IMG/VR virus record: IMGVR_UViG_2872698443_000002 | DNA: 35,230 nucleotides | Reading direction: 5' to 3' (one strand) | Origin: a virus | Taxonomy: Duplodnaviria > Heunggongvirae > Uroviricota > Caudoviricetes | Shown here: positions 1 to 34,533 of the stretch, in pieces | Numbering within the stretch: position 1 is the stretch's first letter | Layout of the letters: each line of letters opens with the position of its first letter | Position numbers and translations under genes: made by a program | Notes under the pieces: model-generated | Database searches by the model: none | The model's input: the letters and a program-made list of their open reading frames with translations, nothing else | Told to the model about the DNA's origin: nothing

Positions 1-1032
1 TCAATCGCGTCTCAGCTGGGGTAAGCGAGACATCTTGGCGGGTTGATAAGCTATAGTGATCAAGAACTGAGAATACTTGAACCAATTCTCTAGAATCCCT
101 TCACCATATATCAAAATTTTATCTTCTATAGGGAAGTACAAGTTTACCACTTCATTTCTGCAAGTATCCAAGAAGGCGTAGGTTATCTCTTCTAAGGATT
201 GCAGTGATTCGTACAGAGTGCCAAAATCATAAAATGGTGAATAAACTTGGTATTTATTATAACTATCATTTATTACAAATGACTTTTTATAATGAAATCC
301 ACCTAAACACAACAGTTTACAAGTTTTTTCATAAATAATCATAACTCCTACAAATATTCTCATCTTTGTTGTGCAAAGTTCCTCTGTAGGATGTATTTGA
401 TTTTCACTCTCGGATAATTGCTTGAGTCTTGCGTTGATTTCTACCCAACATTTGTGTAAATCAATAACAAATTGCTCATTAATATCTAATTGTTGAGAAT
501 CATCAGGCGTAGATTGTGGGTATGCTTTTCTATATAATTCTTGTGGATGTTTTATAAAATGTTGGTAGATTGCTTCAGCTTGAGCTTCCTGAACCGGGTA
601 GTAGCTGCCTATTCTTTTTCCTTCGATTTTTTTATATAAATCAAGATGAAATTTCATGTGGTTGTAATATAAATCTACCCTGTTTTTCCTTTCTGCCTCT
701 GAGATCTGTTTTTCTGTTTGTTTGGTTCTGTGTAGGTTGTTTACTATTGAAACTAAAGGTACTGCAGATGCAAGGATGAGTAATGGTAATTTCGAGATAT
801 CTAAAAATCTCTCATAACCGTGACTTGTAAGACTAAAAGAGTGTATTTTATCTATCCAGACAAAAGAACCAAAGTAAAGGCTGGTGAATAAAGGTAGGCC
901 TATTGCAGCCCAGAACAAGGGTTGTTGGAACAAGCTTCTATGATCGAGAACATAAAGTCGATATTTTATAAATAAGAATATACAACCTAATAAAACGGAT
1001 AGGTACATAAATGTGCTAATGCTTTTTTCCAT
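1..1032 (-). CDS. hypothetical membrane protein; AT-rich cargo gene immediately downstream of int
   Basis: 343-aa ORF. The first ~100 aa carry three hydrophobic helix-like stretches, followed by a ~240-aa soluble region with no motif I recognise. Its ATG starts 2 nt after the int stop (tgaTAATGg). Visibly more AT-rich than the phage backbone. Confidence 0.6.
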   Translation of the reverse strand: MEKSISTFMYLSVLLGCIFLFIKYRLYVLDHRSLFQQPLFWAAIGLPLFTSLYFGSFVWIDKIHSFSLTSHGYERFLDISKLPLLILASAVPLVSIVNNLHRTKQTEKQISEAERKNRVDLYYNHMKFHLDLYKKIEGKRIGSYYPVQEAQAEAIYQHFIKHPQELYRKAYPQSTPDDSQQLDINEQFVIDLHKCWVEINARLKQLSESENQIHPTEELCTTKMRIFVGVMIIYEKTCKLLCLGGFHYKKSFVINDSYNKYQVYSPFYDFGTLYESLQSLEEITYAFLDTCRNEVVNLYFPIEDKILIYGEGILENWFKYSQFLITIAYQPAKMSRLPQLRRD

Positions 1033-2057: not shown

Positions 2058-2708
2058 TTAGAGGTTCTTGATTACTTTGACTGCACGTCCTACGACTTCC
2101 ACATCATCTACAGAACATTCAAATGAAGTGTCATCTTGGTTAACTACTATTTTGTTTCCGGGTATGCGCGCAATTTTGACGATGTTTTTCATACCGTCGA
2201 TGTCTATGAGCCAAATTCCGTTACTAAGCTGTTTTGCTGATGTATCAACAATGTAATTGCCGTCGTTAGCTTTGACGTACAAACAATATTCGGCTTTTCC
2301 GGGTATCAAAGTCTGATCAAGGAAAACATCCCCCATCTCTTCGAGCGTTCCGTTCTCAATGGTTGCCTGCCTTACTGATGGGATAACTATCTTTGAAAGG
2401 GGGCGAACTGTAGGTGAACTCTCGTTTTTGAACTTATTTTTTTCTTCTGTTTGAGGATACATTTCCCCTTGGCCCGTTGTCAGCCAAAGAAGAGAAATAC
2501 CTGTTTCAAGGGCACATTGAATAACCCAGTCAGCAGGGAAGCTATCACGTAACATCCTGTTTGCCATGGTGCTTTTTGATGCTTCGAGGTGTTCAACCAA
2601 CGCAATCTGAGTGTTGAAACCATAGGCAGTCATCAGCCTTTTGATGGTCTCTCTTCCTCCCGTATTTGCACCTGTATTAATCTTCAAGATGAACTCTCCA
2701 TTTGACAA
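2058..2708 (-). CDS. cI: CI-type immunity repressor (186 CI-like)
   Basis: 216-aa ORF from a TTG; N-terminal HTH-like segment (AYGFNTQIALVEHLEASKSTMANRM) and a C-terminal domain ending ...FECSVDDVEVVGRAVKVIKNL. Its stop is 4 nt from the int start (cI-int operon). The start codon is uncertain: TTG at 2708 or ATG at 2633. Confidence 0.7.
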   Translation of the reverse strand: MSNGEFILKINTGANTGGRETIKRLMTAYGFNTQIALVEHLEASKSTMANRMLRDSFPADWVIQCALETGISLLWLTTGQGEMYPQTEEKNKFKNESSPTVRPLSKIVIPSVRQATIENGTLEEMGDVFLDQTLIPGKAEYCLYVKANDGNYIVDTSAKQLSNGIWLIDIDGMKNIVKIARIPGNKIVVNQDDTSFECSVDDVEVVGRAVKVIKNL

Positions 2709-2730
2709 TCCAATAACGAGATCGTATTTT
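2702..2730 (+). promoter_or_regulatory. candidate rightward early promoter (pR-like): TTGACA, 17-bp spacer, TATTTT
   Basis: Perfect -35 hexamer TTGACA at 2702..2707 and a -10-like TATTTT at 2725..2730, reading toward apl/cII. Overlaps the cI start, consistent with a face-to-face switch as in 186. Confidence 0.35.
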
Positions 2731-2810: not shown

Positions 2811-3053
2811 ATGAGCACAGATATTTCAATTCGTGTACCAAAAGAGATGGCTACGCCTGCTGAATTCGCTGAATGGGAAGGGATTTCCCGTGGGTCTGTT
2901 TACCAAAAAATTCACCATGGCCAACTCGCTAAGTACATGGTCAAGAAAGAAAAAAACAAAGGCCGCGTAAGCCTGCGTTATCTGATGTACAAAACTGATC
3001 AGGTCCGTGAATCCCTCGGTCATTCCAACTTCCGCGTCATTGTTGGTAAGTAA
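2811..3053 (+). CDS. Apl/Cox-like excisionase and switch regulator (small HTH protein)
   Basis: 80-aa ORF, first gene transcribed divergently from cI-int. HTH-like segment EFAEWEGISRGSVYQKIHHGQL. Position and size match 186 Apl / P2 Cox. Confidence 0.6.
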   Translation: MSTDISIRVPKEMATPAEFAEWEGISRGSVYQKIHHGQLAKYMVKKEKNKGRVSLRYLMYKTDQVRESLGHSNFRVIVGK

Positions 3054-3085
3054 CTTCAATTATGGGAACTTTCTAAGGGAGCACC

Positions 3086-4175: not shown

Positions 4176-4409
4176 ATGCGTAATATTGAAACCCTCACGA
4201 CTAAAACCGGACCGGATGACACAGGGCTTAATATTTTACTGACAGAGGCTCGTCTGGAAGAACGCCGGGCAAGGGCTGAAGCAATGGCAGCTCGCCTTGA
4301 TCGCCTGGCGTGTCATATCACATCCCGCCAGTTAAACCACGTCGAAGCGGCAGAACTGCTGCGTGTGACTGCTGAAGCAATCCAGAACGAAGCGCAGGAG
4401 ATCCACTGA
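4176..4409 (+). CDS. hypothetical early protein
   Basis: 77-aa ORF from ATG 4176, preceded by AGGAG at 4164..4168. Confidence 0.5.
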   Translation: MRNIETLTTKTGPDDTGLNILLTEARLEERRARAEAMAARLDRLACHITSRQLNHVEAAELLRVTAEAIQNEAQEIH

Positions 4410-4636
4410 TGGCTGATGCAATGGATCTCGTACAGCAGCGAGTTGAAGAAGAACGCCAACGTCATATCCGTGCTGCCCGTGCCAAAACGCCGGGCGTGTC
4501 CCGCGTGCTTTGCGTTGAGTGTGAAGCGCCAATTCTGCCAGCACGCCGTCGTGCCATTCCGGGTGTGCAGCTTTGCATTACCTGTCAGGAAATCGCAGAG
4601 CTGAAAGGCAAACATTACAACGGAGGTGCTGTATGA
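4409..4636 (+). CDS. TraR/DksA-family C4 zinc-finger protein
   Basis: 75 aa with C-x2-C-x17-C-x2-C (CVECEAPILPARRRAIPGVQLCITCQ). Small phage proteins of this family are common in P2-like early operons. Confidence 0.8.
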   Translation: MADAMDLVQQRVEEERQRHIRAARAKTPGVSRVLCVECEAPILPARRRAIPGVQLCITCQEIAELKGKHYNGGAV

Positions 4637-5257
4637 GCACCATCCTGAAATGGGCGGGAAATAAAACCGCCATAATGTCCGAACTGAAAAAGCATCTTCC
4701 TGCTGGCCCGCGACTGGTTGAACCTTTCGCGGGATCCTGTGCAGTGATGATGGAGACGGATTACCCCAGCTATCTTGTTGCGGATATTAATCCTGATTTA
4801 ATCAACCTCTATAAAAAGGTTGCTGCTGATTGTGAGGCGTTTATATCTCGTGCCAGAGCTTTATTTGAGGAAGCAAACAGGGAGGTGGCTTATTACAACA
4901 TAAGGCAGGAGTTTAATTACTCCACTGAAATTACTGATTTCATGAAAGCGGTATATTTTCTGTATCTCAATCGTCATGGTTATCGTGGGTTATGTCGCTA
5001 TAACAAGAGCGGGTATTTCAACATTCCCTACGGTAATTATAAAAATCCGTATTTCCCTGAAAAAGAAATTCGCGCATTTGCAGAGAAAGCCCAGCGGGCA
5101 ACGTTTATCTGCGCCAGCTTTGATGAAACGCTGGCGATGTTGAAGGCGGGGGATGTGGTGTATTGCGATCCGCCTTATGACGGTACGTTTTCCGGCTATC
5201 ACACTGATGGCTTCACTGAAGATGACCAGTATCACCTGGCATCCGTTCTTGAACATC

Positions 5258-5262
5258 GATCA
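5258..5262. repeat. IS2 target-site duplication, left copy (GATCA)
   Basis: The 5-bp GATCA immediately left of the IS2 end is repeated at 6594..6598. Confidence 0.8.
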
Positions 5263-5353
5263 TAGACTGGCCCCCTGAATCTCCAGACAACCAATATCAC
5301 TTAAATAAGTGATAGTCTTAATACTAGTTTTTAGACTAGTCATTGGAGAGCAG

Positions 5354-5719
5354 ATGATTGATGTCTTAGGACCGGAGAAACGCAGACGGCGTACTACACA
5401 GGAAAAGATCGCTATTGTTCAGCAGAGTTTTGAACCGGGAATGACGGTCTCCCTTGTTGCCCGGCAACACGGTGTGGCAGCCAGCCAGTTATTTCTCTGG
5501 CGCAAGCAATACCAGGAGGGAAGTCTTACTGCTGTGGCCGCAGGAGAGCAGGTCGTTCCTGCCTCTGAACTTGCTGCTGCCATGAAGCAGATTAAAGAAC
5601 TCCAGCGCCTGCTCGGCAAAAAAACGATGGAAAATGAACTCCTTAAAGAAGCCGTTGAATACGGGCGTGCAAAAAAGTGGATAGCGCACGCGCCCTTATT
5701 GCCCGGGGATGGGGAGTAA
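5354..5719 (+). CDS. insC: IS2 transposase OrfA (InsC)
   Basis: 121 aa, [41 protein letters not shown]..., HTH-type OrfA of IS2. Confidence 0.9.
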
Positions 5720-6582
5720 GCTTAGTCAGCCGTTGTCTCCGGGTGTCGCGTGCGCAGTTGCACGTAATTCTCAGACGAACCGATGACTGGAAAGATGGTC
5801 GCCGCAGCCGTCACTCAGATGATACGGATGTGCTTCTCCGTATACACCATGTTATCGGAGAGCTGCCCACGTATGGTTATCGTCGGGTATGGGCGCTGCT
5901 TCGCAGACAGGCCGAACTTGATGGTATGCCTGCGATCAATGCCAAACGTGTTTACCGGATCATGCGCCAGAATGCGCTGTTGCTTGAGCGAAAAACCGCT
6001 GTACCGCCATCGAAACGGGCACATACTGGCAAAGTGGCCGTGAAAGAAAGCAATCAACGATGGTGCTCTGACGGGTTCGAGTTCCGCTGTGATAACGGAG
6101 AAAAACTGCGAGTCACGTTCGCGCTGGACTGCTGTGACCGTGAGGCACTGCACTGGGCAGTCACTACGGGCGGCTTCGACAGTGAAACAGTACAGGACGT
6201 AATGCTGGGAGCGGTGGAACGCCGCTTCGGCAACGAGCTTCCGGCGTCTCCAGTAGAGTGGCTGACGGATAATGGTTCATGCTACCGGGCTAATGAAACA
6301 CGGCAGTTTGCCCGGATATTGGGGCTTGAACCGAAGAACACGGCGGTGCGGAGTCCGGAGAGTAACGGCATAGCAGAGAGCTTCGTGAAAACGATAAAGC
6401 GTGACTACATCAGTATCATGCCTAAACCAGACGGGTTAACGGCAGCAAAGAACCTTGCAGAGGCGTTCGAGCATTATAACGAATGGCATCCGCATAGTGC
6501 ACTGGGTTATCGCTCGCCACGGGAATATCTGCGGCAGCAGGCCAGTAATGGGTTAAGTGATAACAGGTGTCTGGAAATATAG
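5677..6582 (+). CDS. insD: IS2 transposase OrfB (InsD), DDE catalytic domain
   Basis: 301 aa from GTG 5677, overlapping orfA in the -1 frame; an A-AAA-AAG frameshift motif lies just upstream of the orfA stop. Confidence 0.9.
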
Positions 6583-6593
6583 GGGCAAATCCA

Positions 6594-6598
6594 GATCA
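6594..6598. repeat. IS2 target-site duplication, right copy (GATCA)
   Basis: Direct repeat of 5258..5262. Confidence 0.8.
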
Positions 6599-6822
6599 TC
6601 TGAAGGTCATCCGGTCATTGTTTCTAACAGTGACACATCCCTGATTCGTTCGCTGTATCGCAATTTCACTCACTACTACATCAAGGCAAAACGCAGCATC
6701 GGCGTGTCGGCTGGCGAGAGTAAATCTGCAACAGAAATCATTGCTGTTTCCGGGGCGCGCTGCTGGGTGGGATTTGATCCTTCGCGTGGCGTGGATAGTT
6801 CTGCCATGTACGGAGTGCGTGC

Positions 6823-9237
6823 ATGAGCCATGATGATATGAACAACTGCAGCGGCTTTAACGAGGCCGCCGCAGCATTCTCATGGAACAGCCCGAAAAAG
6901 GCCATTAACCCTTATCTGGACCCGGCGGAAGTTGCGCCGGTTTCTGCGCTTTCAAACCTGATCACTCTGTACGCTGCCGATAACGAGCAGGAACAACTGC
7001 GCCGCGAGGCACTGAGTGATCAGGTCTGGGAGCGTTATTTCTTTAATGAATCCCGTGATCCTGTCCAACGCGAAATGGAGCAGGATAAGCTCATTAGCCG
7101 GGCAAAGCTGGCGCATGAGCAGCAGCGTTTTAATCCAGATATGGTCATTCTGGCGGACGTCAATGCCCAGCCTTCCCATATCAGCAAGCCGCTGATGCAA
7201 CGTATTGAATACTTCAGCAGCCTGGGCAGGCCAAAGGCTTATTCCCGCTATTTGCGTGAGACGATTAAGCCATGTCTGGAACGACTGGAGCATGTACGCG
7301 ACAGTCAGCTATCCACTTCTTTTCGCTTTATGGCAAGCCATGAAGGGCTGGACGGCCTGCTGATCCTGCCTGAAATGAGTCAGGAGCAGGTGAAACGCTT
7401 GTCTACCCTTGTCGCTGCGCATATGAGCATGTGTCTTGATGCAGCTTGTGGCGATTTGTATGTCACCGATGACGTTAAGCCAGAAGAAATCCGCAAGACA
7501 TGGGAAAAGGTGGCAGCGGAAACCCTGCGTCTGGATGTCATCCCGCCTGCGTTTGATCAACTCCGCCGGAAAAGAAACCGCCGTAAACCCGTGCCCTATG
7601 AACTCATTCCGGGTTCGCTGGCGCGTATGTTGTGCGCCGACTGGTGGTACCGGAAATTATGGAAGATGCGTTGCGAATGGCGGGAAGAGCAGTTGCGTGC
7701 TGTCTGCCTGGTCAGCAAAAAAGCATCTCCCTATGTCAGCTATGAAGCCGTGATGCATAAACGTGAGCAGCGCCGTAAGTCGCTGGAGTTTTTTCGTTCT
7801 CATGAACTGGTGAACGAAGACGGCGACACGCTGGACATGGAGGATGTGGTAAACGCCAGCAGCAGCAACCCTGCGCATCGCCGCAATGAGATGATGGCCT
7901 GTGTTAAAGGTCTGGAGCTTATCGCGGAAATGCGCGGTGACTGCGCCGTTTTCTACACCATCACCTGTCCGTCACGTTTCCATTCCACGCTAAATAACGG
8001 CAGGCCAAACCCGACCTGGACCAACGCGACAGTAAGACAAAGCAGTGATTATCTGGTCGGCATGTTTGCTGCATTTCGTAAGGCTATGCACAAAGCCGGG
8101 TTGCGCTGGTATGGCGTGCGGGTGGCTGAGCCGCATCATGACGGCACAGTTCACTGGCACCTGTTGTGTTTCATGCGCAAAAAAGACCGCCGCGCCATTA
8201 CTGCATTGTTGCGTAAGTTTGCCATCCGTGAAGACCGCGAGGAGCTGGGCAATAACACGGGACCACGCTTTAAGTCTGAGCTGATAAACCCGCGCAAAGG
8301 AACGCCGACAAGCTACATTGCGAAATATATCAGTAAGAATATTGACGGGCGTGGTCTGGCTGGCGAGATCAGTAAGGAAACGGGGAAATCCCTGCGTGAT
8401 AACGCTGAATACGTTAATGCCTGGGCGTCTCTGCATCGTGTTCAGCAATTCCGCTTCTTTGGCATTCCGGGGCGTCAGGCTTACCGTGAACTGCGATTGC
8501 TGGCTGGTCAGGCGGCAAGGCAACAGGGTGACAAAAAAGCAGGTGCGCCGGTACTGGATAACCCGCGCCTTGATGCCATTCTGGCTGCTGCTGATGCTGG
8601 TTGTTTTGCCACCTACATCATGAAGCAGGGCGGCGTACTGGTTCCCCGCAAATATCACCTCATCAGAACCGCTTATGAAATCAACGAAGAGCCAACCGCC
8701 TATGGCGATCACGGTATTCGTATTTATGGCATCTGGTCACCCATTGCAGAGGGCAAGATCTGCACTCATGCAGTGAAGTGGAAAATGGTTCGTAAGGCCG
8801 TTGACGTTCAGGAGGCGGCAGCCGACCAGGGCGCTTGCGCCCCTTGGACTCGTGGCAATAACTGTCCCCTTGCTGAAAATTTGTACCAACAAGGGAAAGA
8901 CAAATCAGCTGATGGAGATACCAGAACGGATATCACCCGCATGGATGACAAGGAGTTGCACGATTACCTGCACAGTATGAGCAAAAAAGAGCGCCGGGAA
9001 CTGGCAGCAAGGTTACGCCTGGTGAAACCGAAACGGCGTAAAGACTACAAACAGCGAATTACAGACCATCAGCGACTGCAGCTCGTGTATGAACTGAAGT
9101 CCAGGGGATTTGATGGCAGCGAGAAAGAGGTCGATTTACTCCTTCGCGGCGGCAGTATTCCGTCAGGAGCAGGCCTGCGTATCTTCTATCGGAACCAGCG
9201 TTTGCAGGAAGATGATAAGTGGCGAAACCTGTATTAA
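6823..9237 (+). CDS. A: replication initiation endonuclease gpA (rolling-circle, HUH class)
   Basis: 804 aa. Contains an HUH-like motif (VHWHLLCF) and a downstream tyrosine motif ([14 protein letters not shown]). Position after the early operon matches P2/186 gene A. Confidence 0.9.
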
Positions 9238-9822: not shown

Positions 9823-10033
9823 GAAACGTTGCTGGCGTCTGAACCTGCTTCTGGCGTCAGCAAGGTTGAACCGCGAGCCTTGAGAGGCGTTAACCATAAG
9901 TAAAAAGACAGTAATCACTTGATTATCTATCAGGGCGAGACCTATGCTGCACTTTTAGTTATAACTCATAATGTATTGAAATTATTAGAATATATGTCAT
10001 TCTTAAAATGTGTATGCTTATCAAGGAGCAAGA

Positions 10034-10906
10034 ATGAAACGTGGCATTGTAGCTAATCCTAATGAAATGAGTTTTCATAGAAATAATAGTACGGTCTATC
10101 TTGGGGCAGGTTTAACTGAGCAGGATATTAATTATTTCTGCTTTTACTGGGATGATGTGGTTATTCTAGATAGTGAAAATATTCACTCGATTGTGCCTAA
10201 AGAAAAAGAATTATTAGATAATGGGGTATTACGTAGACCTATTATGAAACATGATGGTATGCTGAATATCCAAGACTTTCCATTTTTATATACGGAATTT
10301 CAGTTGCAGACATTGGATGAATTCAGGAAGAACGAGCCTGCTACTTATTGGCACTTTCATCAAACAGGGGAAAATTTAATATATGATAAAGAACAGAAAA
10401 CGGCCCTTCAGTTGAGATTGGAGTTGTTTAATGTTCTGAGAATTCCTGATAAAGATGCTCATATAGAAGATATATTACGTTTTAAAGATGATTGTCAGGA
10501 TGATCTTAATGCGTTACATGAGTACTTAGAAAAACTGTATACTGAAGTCCTTTATTCTAGAGACCCTAATCTAACGAGGGCTAAAAATTTTTCTTTATTA
10601 CAAGAGGCTGTAGTTAATCTTGATAAAGCTATCGAAGGGAAATGGAGAAATCCTATCAGAATGGGAGTCAAAGCCAATCCAGAAGTAGATGGTGGGCAGG
10701 TTATGGAATTTTTAAAACCGTTGTACCATGCTGCTATTGCTGGTTATTCAGGCGGTATTATTCCCGGTATGGTTACAGCCTTGGCAACCGCAATTCCAAG
10801 TTTTATAAAAATCCAACCAGAATGGGTGGGCTTTAGAGATAAGGGGCCTAAAGAATTAGCTTATCTTACCAAAGCAACGCATAAGGGGTTGATTAAGAGA
10901 GCTTAA
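10034..10906 (+). CDS. hypothetical protein; AT-rich cargo ORF in the A-to-cos variable region
   Basis: 290 aa from ATG 10034 (RBS AAGGAG 6 nt upstream; an upstream GTG at 10010 is also possible). Visibly AT-rich. C-terminal glycine-rich hydrophobic segment AAIAGYSGGIIPGMVTALATAIPSF. No catalytic motif recognised. Confidence 0.6.
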   Translation: MKRGIVANPNEMSFHRNNSTVYLGAGLTEQDINYFCFYWDDVVILDSENIHSIVPKEKELLDNGVLRRPIMKHDGMLNIQDFPFLYTEFQLQTLDEFRKNEPATYWHFHQTGENLIYDKEQKTALQLRLELFNVLRIPDKDAHIEDILRFKDDCQDDLNALHEYLEKLYTEVLYSRDPNLTRAKNFSLLQEAVVNLDKAIEGKWRNPIRMGVKANPEVDGGQVMEFLKPLYHAAIAGYSGGIIPGMVTALATAIPSFIKIQPEWVGFRDKGPKELAYLTKATHKGLIKRA

Positions 10907-11078
10907 GGCATTTTAATCGATTTTCGCAACTATATTCCTTCGTAACCACACAAGTGCATGACTATGCCGCATGAATCCGCATGATCGTTTGAGGATCGTT
11001 TTAGCTGAGGCCCGCTAGGAATGGCGGGCCTTTGCTTATGTCATGCAGGCGCATGAAAACCACTACATAAAGCGGGCA

Positions 11079-11097
11079 GGCGTGGCGGGGATACGAG
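11079..11097. other. candidate cos cohesive-end site (GGCGTGGCGGGGATACGAG)
   Basis: Lies in the intergenic region just downstream of portal gene Q, where P2/186 cos is located. The first 13 nt resemble my recollection of the 186/P2 cohesive end (GGCG(T/A)GGCGGGGA...). Confidence 0.4.
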
Positions 11098-11258
11098 CGC
11101 GCGCAACGGGGTAAAATGGCCAAAATCCGGCACAGCCTCTGGCCCGCTGGCGGCCTCATTTAGTGGAGGGGGGGGAGATGTCAGGGCAAAAAGAAACGCC
11201 CCGCAGAATGCTGCTGAGGCGTTGTGAGAGTTGGTCGGTTATTGATGTTATGAGTATG

Positions 11259-12302
11259 TCAGCTTCGTTTGCCCTTAAGTCCTAAGTCATAGGCTTCAAA
11301 ACGGATAACCTCTTCATCCAGCCAGTCATTCAGCTCCTGCAGTCGCTTTTGCAGGGGCATCAGTTCATTGCGGACGAAGACACGGCTCGCTTTTTCCACA
11401 TCCCCAAAGCCGCCAGTGTTGTTGGGAATGATGCCCATCATTTGCGGCGGTACGCGGTGAGCCGCCATCATGTCATCGCGGCTGACGTTCTTGATGTTCA
11501 GAAATTCATCCTTCGCCGCGACTTCCGACAACGGGATAATCTGAATGCCATCTTTTTTGCCGTTAGGCGAGTACATAAACAGGTTGCGGAAGTTGCCCGG
11601 TCCTTTAGCGCTTTTCATTGCCTTGCGGATGTTGTTCACATCCTCCTGGTTCTGTGCGGCGTCGGTCATGTACATGATGAAGCCTGCGTGGCTGCCGTTA
11701 ATGTAATACTTGCGGCGGAACAGCGTGGCGGATTCGTTGAGCAGAGCTGACGGAATGGCAGAAAGGTAACCCGGCAGACCATAAATCTCCTGGTTGATAT
11801 CCGGCTCCATCAGGTGGAAGACGTTACCTTTTGTGAACTGATACGGCTGTGTCGTCAGGCTGTATTGCACAAACCAGTATGTTTCAAGGTCAAGCCCGCG
11901 TCGGGTGTATTTTGCCAGTGCAGGCTCCAGCGAAATAACTTCACCAAAGCGGTTCGTGCGTTTCTCCAGGTAGGCGTTACCAAAAACCAGATAGTCCTGC
12001 ACAAAACGGGTAAATGCCTGCTGGCTGAGAAGGCGATGTGGAATATAGGTACTGCTGATAATGTCACGCTTAACACTGATCGGGGAGCTGTGGTGCACGG
12101 CGGCGCGGAAGGTGCGCGCCAGTCCGTCAAAGCTGATGGGCGGCTCATACCAGCGATCCATCTGTACGCATTCCACATAGTCCAGCAGTTCGCGGCGGTC
12201 CAGTACAGGAATGGGATCACCAAAGCTGAAAGCCTCCGCAACGGGTTTTTTAGTTTCTTCTGCAGTTACGGTTTCGCCTGGCGCGATATGTTCTTTCATC
12301 AA
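11259..12302 (-). CDS. Q: portal protein gpQ
   Basis: 347 aa; size, position next to cos and upstream of the terminase ATPase, and P2 gene order. Confidence 0.85.
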   Translation of the reverse strand: MMKEHIAPGETVTAEETKKPVAEAFSFGDPIPVLDRRELLDYVECVQMDRWYEPPISFDGLARTFRAAVHHSSPISVKRDIISSTYIPHRLLSQQAFTRFVQDYLVFGNAYLEKRTNRFGEVISLEPALAKYTRRGLDLETYWFVQYSLTTQPYQFTKGNVFHLMEPDINQEIYGLPGYLSAIPSALLNESATLFRRKYYINGSHAGFIMYMTDAAQNQEDVNNIRKAMKSAKGPGNFRNLFMYSPNGKKDGIQIIPLSEVAAKDEFLNIKNVSRDDMMAAHRVPPQMMGIIPNNTGGFGDVEKASRVFVRNELMPLQKRLQELNDWLDEEVIRFEAYDLGLKGKRS

Positions 12303-22511: not shown

Positions 22512-24031
22512 GCACAAAATTTTATACCCTGCTGACGGATATTGGCGCGGCGAAACTTGCCAGCGCCGCCGCGCTCGGTGTGCCGCTAAAAATTACCCAT
22601 ATGGCGGTCGGCGATGGCGGTGGAGTATTGCCAACGCCGGACGCAAAGCAGACGGCACTGGTAAATGAGAAACGCCGGGCTGCGCTGAATATGCTTTATA
22701 TCGACCCGCAGAACAGCAGCCAGATTATTGCCGAACAGGTGATCCCTGAAAACGAGGGCGGTTGGTGGATACGTGAAGTGGGCTTGTTTGATGAGTCCGG
22801 GGCATTGATTGCCGTGGGCAACTGCCCGGAAAGCTATAAGCCGCAACTGGCTGAAGGTAGCGGGCGCACTCAGACCGTGCGCATGGTGCTGATTACCAGC
22901 AGCACGGACAATATCACCCTGAAAATCGACCCTGCTGTAGTGCTGGCAACCCGCAAGTATGTGGATGACAAGGCACTGGAGCTGAAGGTGTACGCGGATG
23001 ATCAGATGGCAAAACATCTTGCCGCACCGGACCCGCATTCACAGTACGCGCCAAAAGCCAGCCCGACATTTACCGGAACCCCCAAAGCGCCAACGCCAGC
23101 GGCGGGGAATAATACCACGCAGGTTGCGACCACTGCGTTTGTACAGGCGGCACTGACGGCCCTTATTAATGGTGCGCCAGCCACGCTGGACACGCTGAAA
23201 GAAATAGCCGCAGCCATTAACAATGATCCGAATTTCAGTACCACCATTAACAATGCGCTGGCACTAAAAGCACCGTTGTCGAGTCCGGCACTCACCGGAA
23301 CGCCAACAGCCCCCACGGCGGCGCAGTCGGTCAACAATACACAGATTGCCACTACGGCTTTTGTGAAATCGGCGATTGCAGGAATGGTGGGTTCTGCACC
23401 TGCTGCACTGGATACACTGAACGAACTGGCGGCGGCACTGGGGAATGATCCGAACTTTGCCACGACAATGCTTAATGCGCTGGCAGGTAAACAACCGCTG
23501 GACAATACGCTTACCAATTTGAGTGGAAAGGATGTGGCTGGTCTTCTCGCATACCTTGGTTTGGGAGAAGGTGCTCCAGCTATTGGCGTTCCGTTCTTCT
23601 GGCCGTCCGCCGCAATGCCAGATACCGTAATCGAAAGCTGGTCCGGCATGGTGTTTTTGAAGTTCAACGGCGCGAAATTCTCTGCCACTGATTACCCTGT
23701 GCTGGCGAAAGTGTTTCCTTCGCTGGTATTACCTGAAGCCCGCGGTGATTTCATTCGTATCTGGGATGATGGTCGTGGTGTAGATAGTGGACGTGGATTA
23801 CTTAGTACGCAGTCTGACCTGATGAAACAATTTACTTTGCAATACTACGGTCCTTCTGCTGGTACTGGAACAAGAATGGTTTTCGCCCTCCAGAGTAATG
23901 CGAACGGCATATATACGAGTGGTATTAGTCAGAATGATGGTAGTGGCACCGCTGCGGCTTTTAATGTACCAGGCGGCACCGAAACACGCCCACGTAACAT
24001 TGCATTCAACTTTTTAGTAAGGGCTAAATAA
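22508..24031 (+). CDS. H: tail fibre protein gpH (constant N-terminal part plus currently expressed variable C-terminal cassette)
   Basis: 507 aa. Contains two tandem ~57-aa repeats (...SPTFTGTPKAPT...NDPNF / ...SPALTGTPTAPT...NDPNF). A gix-like crossover site lies inside the gene at 23544..23569. Confidence 0.85.
   Translation: MSTKFYTLLTDIGAAKLASAAALGVPLKITHMAVGDGGGVLPTPDAKQTALVNEKRRAALNMLYIDPQNSSQIIAEQVIPENEGGWWIREVGLFDESGALIAVGNCPESYKPQLAEGSGRTQTVRMVLITSSTDNITLKIDPAVVLATRKYVDDKALELKVYADDQMAKHLAAPDPHSQYAPKASPTFTGTPKAPTPAAGNNTTQVATTAFVQAALTALINGAPATLDTLKEIAAAINNDPNFSTTINNALALKAPLSSPALTGTPTAPTAAQSVNNTQIATTAFVKSAIAGMVGSAPAALDTLNELAAALGNDPNFATTMLNALAGKQPLDNTLTNLSGKDVAGLLAYLGLGEGAPAIGVPFFWPSAAMPDTVIESWSGMVFLKFNGAKFSATDYPVLAKVFPSLVLPEARGDFIRIWDDGRGVDSGRGLLSTQSDLMKQFTLQYYGPSAGTGTRMVFALQSNANGIYTSGISQNDGSGTAAAFNVPGGTETRPRNIAFNFLVRAK
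23544..23569. repeat. invertase crossover site, left (TTCTCGCATACCTTGGTTTGGGAGAA), inside H
   Basis: 26-bp imperfect dyad. It matches the reverse complement of the 25624..25649 site at 18 of 26 positions, including the central ACnTTGGTTT, and the codon phase is identical in both. Confidence 0.6.
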
Positions 24032-24624
24032 TGAAACCTGTTTTTGATAAAAATGGGCTGGCTACAGTGCCGGGTGATATGCGTTGTTTTTATTATGATG
24101 CAGTAACGTCTGAATATACTGGCTGGTCTGATGAATATATTAATACTGGTGTAAGTATGCCCGCCTGTTCCACTGGTATTGACCCGGGCGAATACATTCC
24201 GGGGAAAGTGGCAGTATTTACGGGTAAGGGATGGAGCCATGAAGAAGACCACCGCAATGAGACTGCTTACTCAATCGAAAATGGCGCAGCTGTTACAGTG
24301 GATTATATCGGTGCCATCAAAGACGCTTATGTCACGCTTTCACCGTTAACGCCATACGATAAATGGGATGGTGAGAAATGGGTGACAGATACTGAGGCAC
24401 AGCATAGTGCCTCAGTAGACGCGGCAGAAGCACAGCGCCAGTCGCTGATTGATGCTGCAATGGCTTCCATCAGTCTGATTCAACTGAAATTGCAGGCCGG
24501 GCGGAAGCTGACGCAGGCAGAAACAACCCGACTTAACGCCGTGCTGGATTACATTGACGCGGTGACGGCAACAGATACCAGCACCGCGCCGGATATCATC
24601 TGGCCTGAACAGCCGGAGGCGTAG
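24031..24624 (+). CDS. G: tail fibre assembly chaperone gpG (Tfa), expressed orientation
   Basis: 197 aa directly after H. Its C-terminus (...DYIDAVTATDTSTAPDIIWPEQPEA) resembles that of the convergent tfa copy. Confidence 0.8.
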   Translation: MKPVFDKNGLATVPGDMRCFYYDAVTSEYTGWSDEYINTGVSMPACSTGIDPGEYIPGKVAVFTGKGWSHEEDHRNETAYSIENGAAVTVDYIGAIKDAYVTLSPLTPYDKWDGEKWVTDTEAQHSASVDAAEAQRQSLIDAAMASISLIQLKLQAGRKLTQAETTRLNAVLDYIDAVTATDTSTAPDIIWPEQPEA

Positions 24625-25030
24625 GCCATTCAATATCTGGAGCACTGGAAATATCAACCATTTCCAGTGCGTCCAGATAATCAAACCAGGCGTTCAAAAG
24701 TGCTTCTTCATCTGGCTTGATGCGTTTGAGCGCCAGTCTTGTCCGTAGCATCTCTGTTTCCGATTTCACTTCTGATATCAGAAATACTTTTTTGACTTCC
24801 GCCTGATGCACCAATTCCTCATGGGTAGGCAGAGTGACATTCACCCAGGCAGGTCGACCTTTGACACTACCGAGTTCTTTTCCTTCCGGAGCCGGTTTCA
24901 TCCAGTATTTATCACGCTCTGAATCCGTCAGTTTAACGATATCGTCCGGCCATGTTCCGGCGGCGATATAGCCGTCTTTCATATCCAGAGGATAAAACGC
25001 CAACGTTGTGGCTGAGAAGCACATATCCAT
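24596..25030 (-). CDS. alternative tail fibre assembly chaperone (tfa'), silent orientation
   Basis: 144 aa, convergent with G with 3' ends overlapping; C-terminus (...DYLDALEMVDISSAPDIEWPTPP) is related to G. Confidence 0.7.
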   Translation of the reverse strand: MDMCFSATTLAFYPLDMKDGYIAAGTWPDDIVKLTDSERDKYWMKPAPEGKELGSVKGRPAWVNVTLPTHEELVHQAEVKKVFLISEVKSETEMLRTRLALKRIKPDEEALLNAWFDYLDALEMVDISSAPDIEWPTPPAVQAR

Positions 25031-25032
25031 AA

Positions 25033-25677
25033 TTAAAATCCTATCGCTAGCCAGGTGGTGGCGTTATTATCGGGAAGGAGCACTCTGTCTGATGTGTTGC
25101 TTAACACGCAAATCTGTGTGGCATTAAATCCGACATTCGTTATAGCATTAGCTGTCCACACTGATGTCGTTTGTCCGCCGCCCGGCGAAGACTCGCCGAC
25201 AAACAGTGGTGGTCTTGTGAAAGCCACCGGGAATTTTACGTAGACATCTGTTGGTGTAATCTCTGATAGCCCCCACTGTATAATCATGCCGGACGGTAAC
25301 TTCTGATATCCATTAGTTGACGGTGAACTACCAAAATCAGCAGGTAGCCCGCGCACCAAATCGGCATCAAGCCCTGACCCGGAACCATCAACCTGAAGCA
25401 GTTTTGTCAGTATTGCCTGCGCCGTTACCTGTTCTTCAAGAGCAAGACTTCCTCCTTTGTTTTGCAGATATACGTATTTTGCGGCACCGTCGACTTTAAA
25501 AGCGATAGCAAATTGTTTCTTCTGTTCATCATATGCCAGCCAAAGACTATCCTCTGGCCTGCCAGACTCAAACACGAAAGTCGAGAATCTGTTATCTGTC
25601 TTATCTCTCTTCAGGTTCAGTAATTCCGGTAAACCAACGTTTATGAAAATGCAGAGATAACGGCTAACTGGCATCAT
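25033..25677 (-). CDS. alternative tail-fibre variable C-terminal cassette (promoterless, silent orientation)
   Basis: Reading frame open through the crossover site. Sequence after the site (...IFINVGLPELLNLKRDK...) parallels H at its crossover (...LLAYLGLGEGAP...). The functional part is about 25033..25636; residues upstream of the site are read-through only. Confidence 0.65.
   Translation of the reverse strand: MMPVSRYLCIFINVGLPELLNLKRDKTDNRFSTFVFESGRPEDSLWLAYDEQKKQFAIAFKVDGAAKYVYLQNKGGSLALEEQVTAQAILTKLLQVDGSGSGLDADLVRGLPADFGSSPSTNGYQKLPSGMIIQWGLSEITPTDVYVKFPVAFTRPPLFVGESSPGGGQTTSVWTANAITNVGFNATQICVLSNTSDRVLLPDNNATTWLAIGF
25624..25649. repeat. invertase crossover site, right (TTCCGGTAAACCAACGTTTATGAAAA), gix/hix-like
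   Basis: Closely resembles Gin/Hin-family recombination sites (compare gix TTCCTGTAAACCGAGGTTTTGGATAA); inverted relative to the site in H; about 55 bp upstream of the invertase gene. Confidence 0.65.
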
Positions 25678-25704: not shown

Positions 25705-26271
25705 ATGCTTATTGGCTATGTACGCGTGTCAACAAATGACCAGAACACCGATTTGCAACGTAATGCACTGAACTGAGCGGGATGTGAGCGGATTTTTGAG
25801 GACAAAATCAGTGGCACTAAGTCCGACAGACCGGGACTGAAAAAACTGCTCAGGACATTATCGGCAGGTGACACTCTGGTTGTCTGGAAGCTGGACAGGT
25901 TGGGGCGCAGTATGCGGCATCTCGTTACGCTGATAGAAGAGCTGCGCCAGCGTGGCGTGAATTTCCGAAGCCTGACTGACAGTATTGATACCAGTACCCC
26001 AATGGGCCGTTTCTTTTTTCATGTCATGGGGGCCCTGGCTGAAATGGAGCGCGAACTGATAGTTGAACGTACCAGGGCGGGGCTGGCTGCAGCTCGCGCC
26101 AAAGGCAGAGTAGGTGGACGCCGTCCTAAGTTGATCACCGAACAGTGGGCACAGATTGGACGTTTACTCGAGGCCGGAGAATCAAGACAGCGTATTGCAC
26201 TGATTTTTGATGTAGGTGTTTCCACAATTTATAGAAAATTTCCGGCAAATAAGAGCAATGAATCCCCCTGA
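25705..26271 (+). pseudogene. Gin/Pin/Hin-family serine DNA invertase with in-frame TGA at codon 24
   Basis: MLIGYVRVSTNDQNTDLQRNALN-stop (TGA 25774..25776), then the same frame continues AGCERIFEDKISG...LVVWKLDRLGRS...FRSLTDSIDT...GRFFFHVMGALAEMERELIVERT... to 26271. This is a full-length invertase apart from the single stop, which falls where Gin/Hin have a Cys/Ser codon. Confidence 0.8.
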
Positions 26272-33545: not shown

Positions 33546-33569
33546 AACCTGCTACGGCAGGTTTTTATT
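33546..33569 (+). terminator. rho-independent terminator after ogr
   Basis: AACCTGC-TACG-GCAGGTT hairpin followed by TTTTATT. Confidence 0.6.
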
Positions 33570-34047
33570 CATCTGGGATCTCACCCGTTTCAAGAAAATG
33601 TATAAAGCCAGGCTCATCTATGATGATTGTGCCTTTCATCCTGGCTGCCGATACTTTTGATGGGCCTGCATTGTAACCGCAACAGAGCATCTGAAGGCTT
33701 TGGGTTACAGAGGTTCTTACCGTTAATCCTTGTTCATTCGCCTTATCAACCAATCTTTCTTTATCTGCTTTCTTAAATCCGGTGAAACACACATCGAATG
33801 TATTTTTTTTCGGACCAGACTGCTTAGTGAGATGTGAGTAGTTTTCGGGGAGGAATGACGCGCATTCCTGAATGGCTTGTTCTGGTGAATCGTACTGTTT
33901 AAGAATGCGGTCTTTTCGGAAGGTTTTTATTCGATCGGTGTTCTTACAAATGCCCTGTATATGATTTTCGCTATAACTGATGCTCTGTATTGAGTGAACT
34001 CCGATACGACCATTTGCATTGATGTAAACAAAGTGAAGTTCTTCCAT
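33565..34047 (-). CDS. hypothetical two-domain protein: N-terminal WYL-like segment plus C-terminal BRCT-like domain; AT-rich cargo gene next to the attachment site
   Basis: 160 aa with RBS AGAGG 6 nt upstream. The C-terminal ~75 aa align position-by-position with the BRCT domain of NAD-dependent DNA ligase. The N-terminus (...NGRIG...GICKNTDRIKTFRKDRI) resembles the GyC...R.FR.DRI signature of WYL beta-barrels. Confidence 0.65.
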   Translation of the reverse strand: MEELHFVYINANGRIGVHSIQSISYSENHIQGICKNTDRIKTFRKDRILKQYDSPEQAIQECASFLPENYSHLTKQSGPKKNTFDVCFTGFKKADKERLVDKANEQGLTVRTSVTQSLQMLCCGYNAGPSKVSAARMKGTIIIDEPGFIHFLETGEIPDE

Positions 34048-34160: not shown

Positions 34161-34170
34161 TTGTTTTATT

Positions 34171-34533
34171 TGGTGGAGCTGGCGGGAGTTGAACCCGCGT
34201 CCGAAATTCCTACATCCTCGGTACTACATGCTTAGTCAGTCTTTACATTCGCTTGCCAGCTGCGGACGGACACGCCACTAACAAACTAGCCTGATTAAGT
34301 TTTAACGCTTCAACCCCAGGCAGGGCTTCCACGCGATCTCTTTTGGGTTTGACCTCTCTTGATCCCCGTCCTAAGAGCGGAGGCTAGGGAGAGAGGGCTC
34401 TAAGCAGGTTATTAAGCTGCTAAAGCGTAGTTTTCGTCGTTTGCGACTATTTTTTGCGGCTTTTTACGAGGCCAACCGCCCCTCGGCATGCACCTTGGGT
34501 TTCGCAAATCCCGTCGAATCCAGAATCAGCCCC
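34171..34533 (-). ncRNA. ssrA: tmRNA (SsrA)
   Basis: The reverse complement begins GGGGCTGATTCTGGATTCGACGGGATTTGCGAAACCC and ends ...GGTTCAACTCCCGCCAGCTCCACCA. It contains the ANDENYALAA tag-coding region (...GCAAACGACGAAAACTACGCTTTAGCAGCTTAA) and the tRNA-like 3' end. Length is 363 nt. Confidence 0.95.

Follow-up and report, generated by a model that had tools for sequence, protein, structure and literature searches.

The stretch of DNA analyzed here (the window, 35,230 nucleotides) covers a prophage in the E. coli chromosome CP029687.1 that is integrated at ssrA. The element is a Felsduovirus-like prophage of the P2 family (Peduoviridae). Pfam matches on the source contig recover the P2-type gene order, with int and CI followed by the early operon running to gene A, the portal and terminase genes, the P2 capsid genes, the tail genes, and ogr, and the prophage is colinear with an annotated E. 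coli prophage at 95–98% nucleotide identity. The order of genes in the early operon is that of the Salmonella phage Felsduovirus RE-2010, and coverage of at least 80% of 24.4 kb is reached by 33 phage records. The attachment sites attL and attR form an exact 46-bp direct repeat, located 116–161 nt to the left of the window (L002 3017–3062) and at 34170–34215. The repeat at 34170–34215 is the 3' end of ssrA, the full tmRNA is present, and the host genes ypjA and smpB flank the prophage. The gene interruption reported in the preliminary description had been assigned to a phage, and the gene indeed lies in the early operon of this prophage. A second lesion, a nonsense codon, is present in the tail-fibre invertase gene; the remaining prophage genes that were compared are all of full length.

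A promoter-like site (TTGACA-N17-TATTTT) at 2702..2730 on the plus strand matches 10 of 12 positions in a consensus scan. We infer that it is the early promoter Pe heading the operon of dam and A, a layout that matches the annotated one of P2. The dam gene is present in two parts on the plus strand, a 5' part at 4633..5262 (codons 1–210, by translation) and a 3' part at 6599..6826 (codons 211–285 plus the stop codon, by translation and alignment to E. coli Dam). At 6823–6826, the tetranucleotide ATGA combines the stop codon TGA of dam with the overlapping ATG of gene A. Gene A (6823..9237, plus strand) encodes an 804-amino acid replication protein, a nicking initiator (Pfam Phage_GPA, E = 1e-127). 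It is intact and full length, with no stops and 98% identity to the orthologue of a related prophage, and by reading of the sequence it has its own GGAG Shine-Dalgarno site 8 nt upstream.

The two parts of dam are separated by a complete IS2 element of 1,331 bp (5263..6593, plus strand), co-oriented with the early operon; a complete IS2 had been claimed at this position, and all coordinates given for it proved exact. As a member of the IS3 family, IS2 transposes in a copy-and-paste manner via a circular intermediate. The 5' end of the element begins with TAGACTGGCCCCC and the 3' end terminates with GGGGCAAATCCA. Comparison with the annotated IS2A of E. coli K-12 MG1655 (NC_000913.3, 381260–382590), likewise of 1,331 bp, resulted in an ungapped alignment with 1,273 of 1,331 positions identical (95.6%). 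The two copies share the A6G frameshift window, the imperfect terminal repeats of 41/42 bp, and a 5-bp target duplication. They are identical over the first 87 nt and differ by 58 substitutions, one of which lies within the right inverted repeat; the InsD proteins differ at 12 amino acids. The left inverted repeat (IRL, 42 bp) occupies 5263..5304 and the right inverted repeat (IRR, 41 bp) 6553..6593, both on the plus strand, with repeat lengths as described for IS2 (PMC3299598; for IRR also PMC9330008), and the arms at 5272–5304 and 6553–6585 are 79% complementary over 33 nt. The product of orfA (insC, 5354..5719, plus strand) is identical to K-12 InsC at 121 of 121 residues and matches Pfam HTH_Tnp_1 and the NCBIfam model "IS2 repressor TnpA" (276 bits against a cut-off of 229). 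The product of orfB (insD, 5677..6582, plus strand; 301 amino acids) carries the DDE/rve catalytic domain (Pfam rve and rve_3) and scores 704 bits with "IS2 transposase TnpB" (cut-off 597). The two reading frames overlap, as expected for IS2, and the A6G window AAAAAAG, described as a site of -1 frameshifting (PMC3299598), is read at 5671–5677 on the plus strand. Near-identical copies of this IS2 (99.9%) are found elsewhere in E. coli, mostly in strains from animal sources, at 19–32 places per record in some.

IS2 is flanked by two perfect copies of GATCA, at 5258..5262 and 6594..6598, in agreement with the 5-bp target duplication that the preliminary description had named; the flanking repeat is 5 bp only, with no match at 6 bp or more. 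The comparison with IS2-free relatives proposed there was made with E. coli CFSAN064036, which holds the empty site, with a single GATCA and no IS2, and the flanks of the window overlap on exactly those 5 bases. Chance is excluded as the source of the repeat, because the empty site carries one copy and the flanks overlap there. A target preference of IS2 for the GATC within the duplication was considered and rejected, since a set of 58 IS2 insertions revealed no target motif (PMC5009759). IS2 occurs in multiple copies in E. coli, the complete genomes searched having a median of 4 places each, and repeats can misassemble, which would be the ground for regarding IS2 in dam as a repeat misplaced during assembly. 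A misjoin, however, would give neither a precise 5-bp duplication nor junctions that agree base for base with an empty site, and the source record is a single chromosome contig of 4.7 Mb, so that the probability of such an artefact is close to nil.

To reconstruct the uninterrupted gene, 5263..6598 was removed in silico. Splicing 4633–5262 to 6599–6826 restores an open reading frame (ORF) of 858 nt and 285 amino acids with no internal stop, and the translation across the junction reads ...LEHRS|SEGHPVIVSNSDTS..., confirming that the upstream part ends in LEHRS and that the downstream part resumes in frame. The reconstructed ORF matches Pfam PF02086 over the whole profile (1–253 of 253, E = 1e-76, 258 bits, cut-off 22) and TIGR00571 with 323.5 bits (cut-off 114.85), which bears out the Dam-family identity proposed earlier. 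It aligns with the E. coli Dam structures 2g1p and 4gol (E = 4e-73, residues 4–260 covered), and the alignment runs without a gap across the junction, as had been anticipated, with PVIVSNSDT of the reconstructed ORF placed opposite PVLISNHDT of E. coli Dam. The DPPY catalytic motif (D179, P180, P181, Y182) is invariant in this alignment. Motif I (pattern FxGxG) reads FAGSC compared with FVGAG in E. coli Dam, the last glycine being replaced; FAGSC is also present in the two intact orthologues compared, to which the reconstructed protein is 98% and 95% identical, and is therefore a trait of the lineage rather than a lesion. From these matches, the reconstructed ORF would encode a full-length Dam-family (D12 class) N6-adenine methyltransferase.

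The phage enzyme and the chromosomal Dam of E. coli share the D12-class fold family, the DPPY motif, and gap-free alignment across the insertion point. In contrast to chromosomal Dam, to which it is 47% identical, the phage enzyme lacks 5 residues after DPPY and has its own C-terminal tail. With NF008152, the equivalog model for housekeeping Dam, the reconstructed ORF scores 288.4 bits, below the cut-off of 441. The interrupted gene is of phage lineage, and its place is the early operon of the prophage rather than the dam locus of the chromosome. GATC specificity of the phage methylase is assumed from the 47% identity.

The intact gene is the norm at this locus among relatives. It is present (at least 80% coverage, 98% identity) in 1,223 of 5,426 complete E. 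coli genomes, where its neighbors are a TraR/DksA-like gene and the gene for the replication endonuclease, gene A. Felsduovirus-type genes such as gp10 of Salmonella phage RE-2010 and E. coli WP_053903769.1 have the same length of 858 bp, with 95–98.8% nucleotide and 95–98% amino acid identity, and the same position between a DksA-like zinc-finger gene and gene A with 4-bp overlaps; unlike these, the present gene is a pseudogene, interrupted by IS2 after codon 210. In P2, the slot held here by dam is occupied by orf83 (DUF5405), so that dam is accessory among P2-family phages. The interrupted arrangement was not encountered elsewhere: the 2.2-kb region has no place at 80% or more coverage in the 5,426 complete E. 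coli genomes, and a 39-mer spanning the left junction matches nothing in either the GTDB representative genomes or the JGI metagenomes. A single assembly contains the exact gene A protein. The insertion seems to be recent and private, because the dam fragments carry no lesions beyond the IS2 split and no other genome or metagenome searched carries the junction.

IS2 entered the methyltransferase gene at codons 209–210, duplicating GATCA. The reading frame of the 5' part now ends at a premature TAG (5263–5265) supplied by bases 1–3 of IS2, which limits the product to 210 of 285 codons. This exact 210-amino acid product has no record in the assembly collection, and the source record contains no call for the gene. 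The lost 75 C-terminal residues align to residues 218–267 of E. coli Dam, plus the tail past the aligned region, and presumably contain the core fold strands that follow the DPPY motif. The truncated product retains the N-terminal cofactor-binding region and DPPY and still scores 275 bits with TIGR00571 (profile positions 1–214 of 267), as might be expected if the gene had been shortened to an active methyltransferase and not inactivated. It lacks, however, 53 of the 267 profile positions, the missing PV(I/L)(V/I)SN.DT block and KRSI region are invariant when the phage enzyme is compared with that of the host, and the C-terminal part is kept in all 1,223 full-coverage orthologues. Residual activity is consequently extremely improbable, and the 210-amino acid product is most likely inactive, making this a probable null allele. 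The window contains no intact translatable methylase gene; the remnants are a Dam-family pseudogene.

We are highly confident that IS2 transposed into a Dam-family gene in the early operon of the prophage, duplicating GATCA and most likely inactivating the gene. Insertion of IS2 into a prophage gene is an ordinary, already-known kind of event, and the significance of the present case beyond annotation is slight, with no open question made newly testable. For annotation, 4633–5262 and 6599–6826 should be given as one pseudogene interrupted by IS2, and the prophage is to be treated as double-lesioned, with dam::IS2 and the invertase nonsense codon. The locus does offer a clean, base-exact case of a recent IS2 insertion with an empty-site reference. 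It resembles other IS-disrupted prophage genes of E. coli, such as those in the pool of defective prophages of O157 Sakai (PMC2669165), which reportedly combine an IS in a gene with other point lesions; the present prophage differs in being otherwise complete, with a nonsense codon only in the invertase.

Because the host encodes a Dam of its own and the phage gene is only accessory in the P2 family, losing it should scarcely affect the host and should not by itself be lethal to the phage. Methylation-sensitive digests of lysogen versus cured strain, suggested earlier as a check, would be uninformative: host Dam already methylates GATC, almost every methylated base of E. coli K-12 being due to Dam or Dcm (PMC12369378), and repression of the early operon of the phage is to be expected in a lysogen. 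A depletion or enrichment of GATC in the prophage was considered and rejected, as the 114 sites observed compared with about 137 expected are unremarkable.

The more relevant consequence is probably that for gene A. In the present arrangement 1.3 kb of IS DNA parts the putative early promoter from this essential gene, the dam/A stop/start arrangement is broken, and the inserted stretch is probably for the most part poorly translated. An IS2 with its right end toward downstream genes may be in the activating, less polar orientation. No intrinsic terminator is predicted on the plus strand between 4494 and 7768. We expect expression of gene A after induction to be reduced but not abolished, because IS2 is co-oriented with the operon, no terminator is predicted, and gene A keeps its own ribosome-binding site. 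If polarity were strong, transcription would end inside IS2 and gene A would be silent, leaving a replication-defective prophage in a step of decay or domestication. This would be consistent with the position of the 1.3 kb upstream of an essential gene in a single operon, with the broken stop/start overlap, and with the invertase nonsense codon, which may reflect relaxed selection; in addition, translation of about 1.1 kb of orfB depends mainly on a rare frameshift (PMC3299598), which may leave RNA exposed to Rho. The orientation of IS2, the lack of a predicted plus-strand terminator, the retained GGAG site, and the full length of the other prophage genes compared all speak against so severe an effect, which we consider possible but clearly the less probable outcome. 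The literature found on the polarity of IS2 orientations I and II leaves open which of them is polar. The locus is potentially a natural test of the effect of a co-oriented IS2 on a downstream essential phage gene, for which a polar reduction is at least as plausible as promoter activation.

Activation could come from a promoter at the right end of IS2. An outward -35 element exists in the IRR of IS2 (PMC3299598, PMC9330008) and would here be TGGAAA at 6572–6577 (plus strand), as placed from the 17-bp spacer of the junction promoter and the 1-bp junction spacer. It pairs with a -10 candidate in the flank to give a putative weak hybrid promoter, TGGAAA-N16-GATCAT (6572..6599, plus strand), in which the duplicated GATCA and the T that follows it make up GATCAT; gene A begins about 220 bp downstream. 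This sequence match of 8 of 12 is located exactly at the junction, and no other plus-strand pairing in 6500–6815 reaches 8 of 12. A repressor-independent hybrid promoter of this kind could drive the 3' fragment of dam and gene A, possibly even in the lysogen, as the right end of IS2 faces gene A and fusion promoters formed with IS2 are on record for ampC, acrEF, and neoR (PMC9330008). The candidate, however, lacks a TG extension, has a spacer of 16 nt, and falls below the threshold of a 9-of-12 consensus promoter scan, which does not report it. The IS2 junction promoter needs a spacer of exactly 17 bp and is otherwise non-functional (PMC3299598), and at 17 nt the -10 hexamer would be ATCATC, with 1 of 6 matches. 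Constitutive production of a nicking initiator acting on a chromosomal origin would probably be harmful, making it unlikely that a strong promoter would be tolerated. A functional hybrid promoter is thus improbable, and any promoter at the right end of IS2 would at best be weak. A precedent is the IS2 promoter of ampC (Jaurin and Normark 1983, cited in PMC9330008), where the right end likewise faces the gene with a -35 element that could pair with a -10 in the flank; there the -10 is reported to be genuine and at the optimal 17 bp, whereas here it is a 4-of-6 hexamer at 16 bp. Were the hybrid promoter to fire, gene A would gain a start that escapes the repressor, and because the GATCAT hexamer contains GATC, its activity could vary with the state of Dam methylation. 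The insertion into a dam gene would then have made an accidental methylation-sensitive switch, which we regard as very improbable.

The gene for the phage Dam-family methyltransferase (dam) is split by an IS2 element into two parts, at 4633-5262 and 6599-6826. The element occupies 5263-6593 (1,331 bp), and reading of the sequence from 4400 to 7100 places its first bases, TAGACTGGCCCCCTGAATCTCCAGACA, at 5263 and its last, GGGGCAAATCCA, at 6593. On either side stands GATCA (5258-5262 and 6594-6598), a repeat of exactly 5 bp with no extension to 6 bp or more, the same length as the target duplication expected for IS2. Re-reading of the boundaries, duplication and splice showed all coordinates given for the insertion in the preliminary description to be correct. 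In E. coli CFSAN064036 the flanks seen in the window are joined on a single GATCA and otherwise do not differ, representing the empty site. A misassembly would yield neither the empty-site match nor the 5-bp duplication, and the insertion is therefore real. The IS2 event requires no special explanation; it is a classic case of an IS landing in an accessory gene of a prophage, a kind of event already known, and the GATC within the target duplication is best read as a coincidence.

Comparison of the element with "insertion sequence:IS2A" of E. coli K-12 MG1655 resulted in a gap-free alignment with 58 mismatches (95.6% identity). At the protein level the two elements share an unchanged orfA product, and 12 residues distinguish their orfB products. 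The proteins pass the NCBI models "IS2 repressor TnpA" (276 bits, cut-off 229) and "IS2 transposase TnpB" (704 bits, cut-off 597) and contain the Pfam domains HTH_Tnp_1 and rve (DDE). Together with the terminal repeats, which were detected and are imperfect, the alignment and the IS2-specific models bear out the earlier reading of a complete IS2. The A6G frameshift window described for IS2 (PMC3299598) is read in wild-type form at 5671-5677. Copies of this variant at 99.9% identity are present in other E. coli genomes, as many as 32 in one record, which suggests that the variant is mobile now or was so recently. By sequence comparison, IS2 and the phage Dam both belong to well-known families, each with >95% identity to described members.

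Joining 4633-5262 directly to 6599-6826 restores an 858-nt, 285-aa ORF with zero internal stops, which reads ...ASVLEHRS|SEGHPVIVSNSDTS... across the join. The present dam ORF ends after codon 210, with the first triplet of IS2 providing the stop codon TAG. The assignment of the split gene to the Dam type is confirmed by the reconstructed protein, which covers the whole PF02086 profile (Pfam, E = 1e-76), scores 323.5 bits against TIGR00571 "Dam family" (cut-off 114.85) and matches PHROG 56, "DNA methyltransferase". Its alignment with the solved structures of E. coli Dam (2g1p and 4gol; E = 4e-73) is gap-free where IS2 inserted, with PVIVSNSDT of the phage enzyme opposite PVLISNHDT of E. coli Dam, in agreement with the preliminary description. 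The Dam alignment thus holds across the junction, and the reconstructed ORF withstands the refutation test set there. The phage enzyme is 47% identical to the host E. coli Dam, and its score of 288 bits against the NCBI equivalog model for host Dam is below the cut-off of 441. The interrupted gene is a phage lineage of the Dam family, distinct from the housekeeping dam. Motif I is FAGSC, compared with FxGxG, and this is not a lesion, because intact orthologues also have FAGSC.

The reconstructed 858-bp gene is present in 1,223 of 5,426 complete E. coli genomes (at least 80% coverage), with identity up to 98.8%, and in 45 phage records. Among the matches listed, it is annotated as "DNA adenine methylase" and nearly always flanked by a TraR/DksA gene and a replication endonuclease gene. 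The IS2-interrupted form was found in none of the 5,426 complete E. coli genomes, and a 39-mer spanning the junction had no match in GTDB representative genomes or JGI metagenomes. The widespread intact gene, the interrupted form and junction unseen elsewhere, and dam fragments free of damage other than the insertion indicate that the insertion is recent and private.

The 210-aa product spans positions 1-214 of the 267 in the TIGR00571 profile and is missing blocks in which the phage and host enzymes do not differ. From the loss of these blocks and of the profile positions beyond 214, we infer that Dam activity is lost. The dam gene is accessory in the P2 family; in P2 the place that dam takes here, between the zinc-finger gene and gene A, is filled by orf83 (DUF5405), a small gene unrelated to it. 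Host Dam methylates GATC regardless of the phage enzyme (PMC12369378) and a lysogen should keep the early operon repressed, making the digest of lysogen versus cured strain proposed in the preliminary description uninformative.

A more interesting target of an insertion effect than Dam is gene A, the replication gene downstream of dam in the same operon, which is essential in P2. Its ATG overlaps the dam stop codon in ATGA (6823-6826). Continued expression of gene A despite IS2 is favored by the co-orientation of the element with the operon, by a prediction of zero plus-strand intrinsic terminators in 4494-7768, and by a GGAG of its own located 8 nt upstream. Polarity of IS2 on gene A is favored by the 1.3 kb inserted and by the dependence of translation of most of orfB on a rare frameshift. 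With modest confidence, gene A expression after induction would be reduced, not abolished.

Outward promoter activity of IS2 had also been proposed to alter gene A expression. The right end of IS2 carries an outward -35, and IS2 fusion promoters exist (PMC9330008); a 17-bp spacer is a strict requirement of the IS2 junction promoter (PMC3299598). This spacer rule and the 1-bp junction spacer would place the -35 at 6572-6577 (TGGAAA). The flank hexamer at 17-nt spacing from TGGAAA is ATCATC (1/6 matches) and that at 16-nt spacing is GATCAT (4/6). TGGAAA-N16-GATCAT is the sole combination with at least 8/12 matches in 6500-6815, and a consensus scan at a threshold of 9/12 reported no plus-strand promoters in this interval. 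A weak hybrid promoter at the right junction of IS2 is possible, and a strong promoter is unsupported. GATCAT (6594-6599), which consists of the duplicated GATCA with its Dam site and the next T, is the only correctly placed -10-like hexamer near the IS2 -35. The presence of the Dam site in it is most likely a coincidence.

An exact match of the 804-aa gene A product locates the window in the E. coli chromosome CP029687.1 (assembly GCA_003443795.1). The flanking host genes (ypjA to the left, ssrA and smpB to the right) confirm E. coli at >99% identity. Integration took place at the 3' end of the tmRNA gene ssrA, of which a complete copy lies at 34171-34533 (minus strand; Rfam, 296 bits). The attachment sites form a 46-bp exact repeat, with attR at 34170-34215 and attL at 3017-3062 of the left flank sequence L002, 116-161 nt left of the window. 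With attL outside the left edge, the window comprises the whole prophage except attL. The element is a P2-family prophage. It encodes integrase, a 186-type CI repressor, CII, Fil, DUF5347, DUF2732, a TraR/DksA-like zinc finger, dam, gene A and DinI; head, lysis and tail genes of the P2 type come next, and then ogr. An annotated prophage (L003) that occupies this site in E. coli S1-CAM-01-A is colinear at 95-98% nucleotide identity, and the early-operon order is shared with Salmonella phage RE-2010 (genus Felsduovirus, family Peduoviridae).

Of the annotated L003 proteins, 44 were compared with the window, together with host SmpB. Apart from the L003 cargo gene, which has no significant match in the window, they have stop-free counterparts, nearly all full-length, except for Dam and the tail-fiber DNA invertase. 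The latter, a Gin/Cin-type enzyme at 25705-26271 (plus strand; Resolvase and HTH_7, Pfam), has a nonsense change at 25774-25776, where TGA replaces the TGC (Cys-24) of its intact 188-aa counterpart in S1-CAM-01-A; this probably locks the tail-fiber segment in one orientation. The prophage is thus nearly intact, carrying two inactivating lesions, in dam and in the invertase gene. The tail-fiber C-terminus and assembly region (23804-25631) has no or low nucleotide match to the related prophage and holds tail-fiber assembly genes in opposite orientations and a gp53-like gene, the layout expected of an invertible host-range segment. The only candidate crossover site is one weak 22-nt inverted repeat (23815-23836 and 25507-25528, 82% complementary).

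At 9892-11344, between DinI and the portal gene, lies the cargo region, a position occupied by old/tin in P2. It contains an ORF at 10010-10906 (plus strand) for a 298-aa DUF6236 protein (phrog_23128, function unknown) with zero matches to PADLOC defense models; L003 has a different, 469-aa cargo gene here. Between attL and the integrase gene, a 343-aa ORF (1-1032, minus strand), 100% identical in S1-CAM-01-A, belongs to phrog_17460 (function unknown) over its full length and has neither a Pfam nor a PADLOC match. A 160-aa ORF between ogr and attR (33565-34047, minus strand) is shared unchanged with the related prophage (100% identity). It matches phrog_2561 strongly but is far too short for the "DNA ligase" of that family's label; its matches to a BRCT domain and to the C-terminal end of the PADLOC candidate PDC-S48 (E = 2e-7) are weak.
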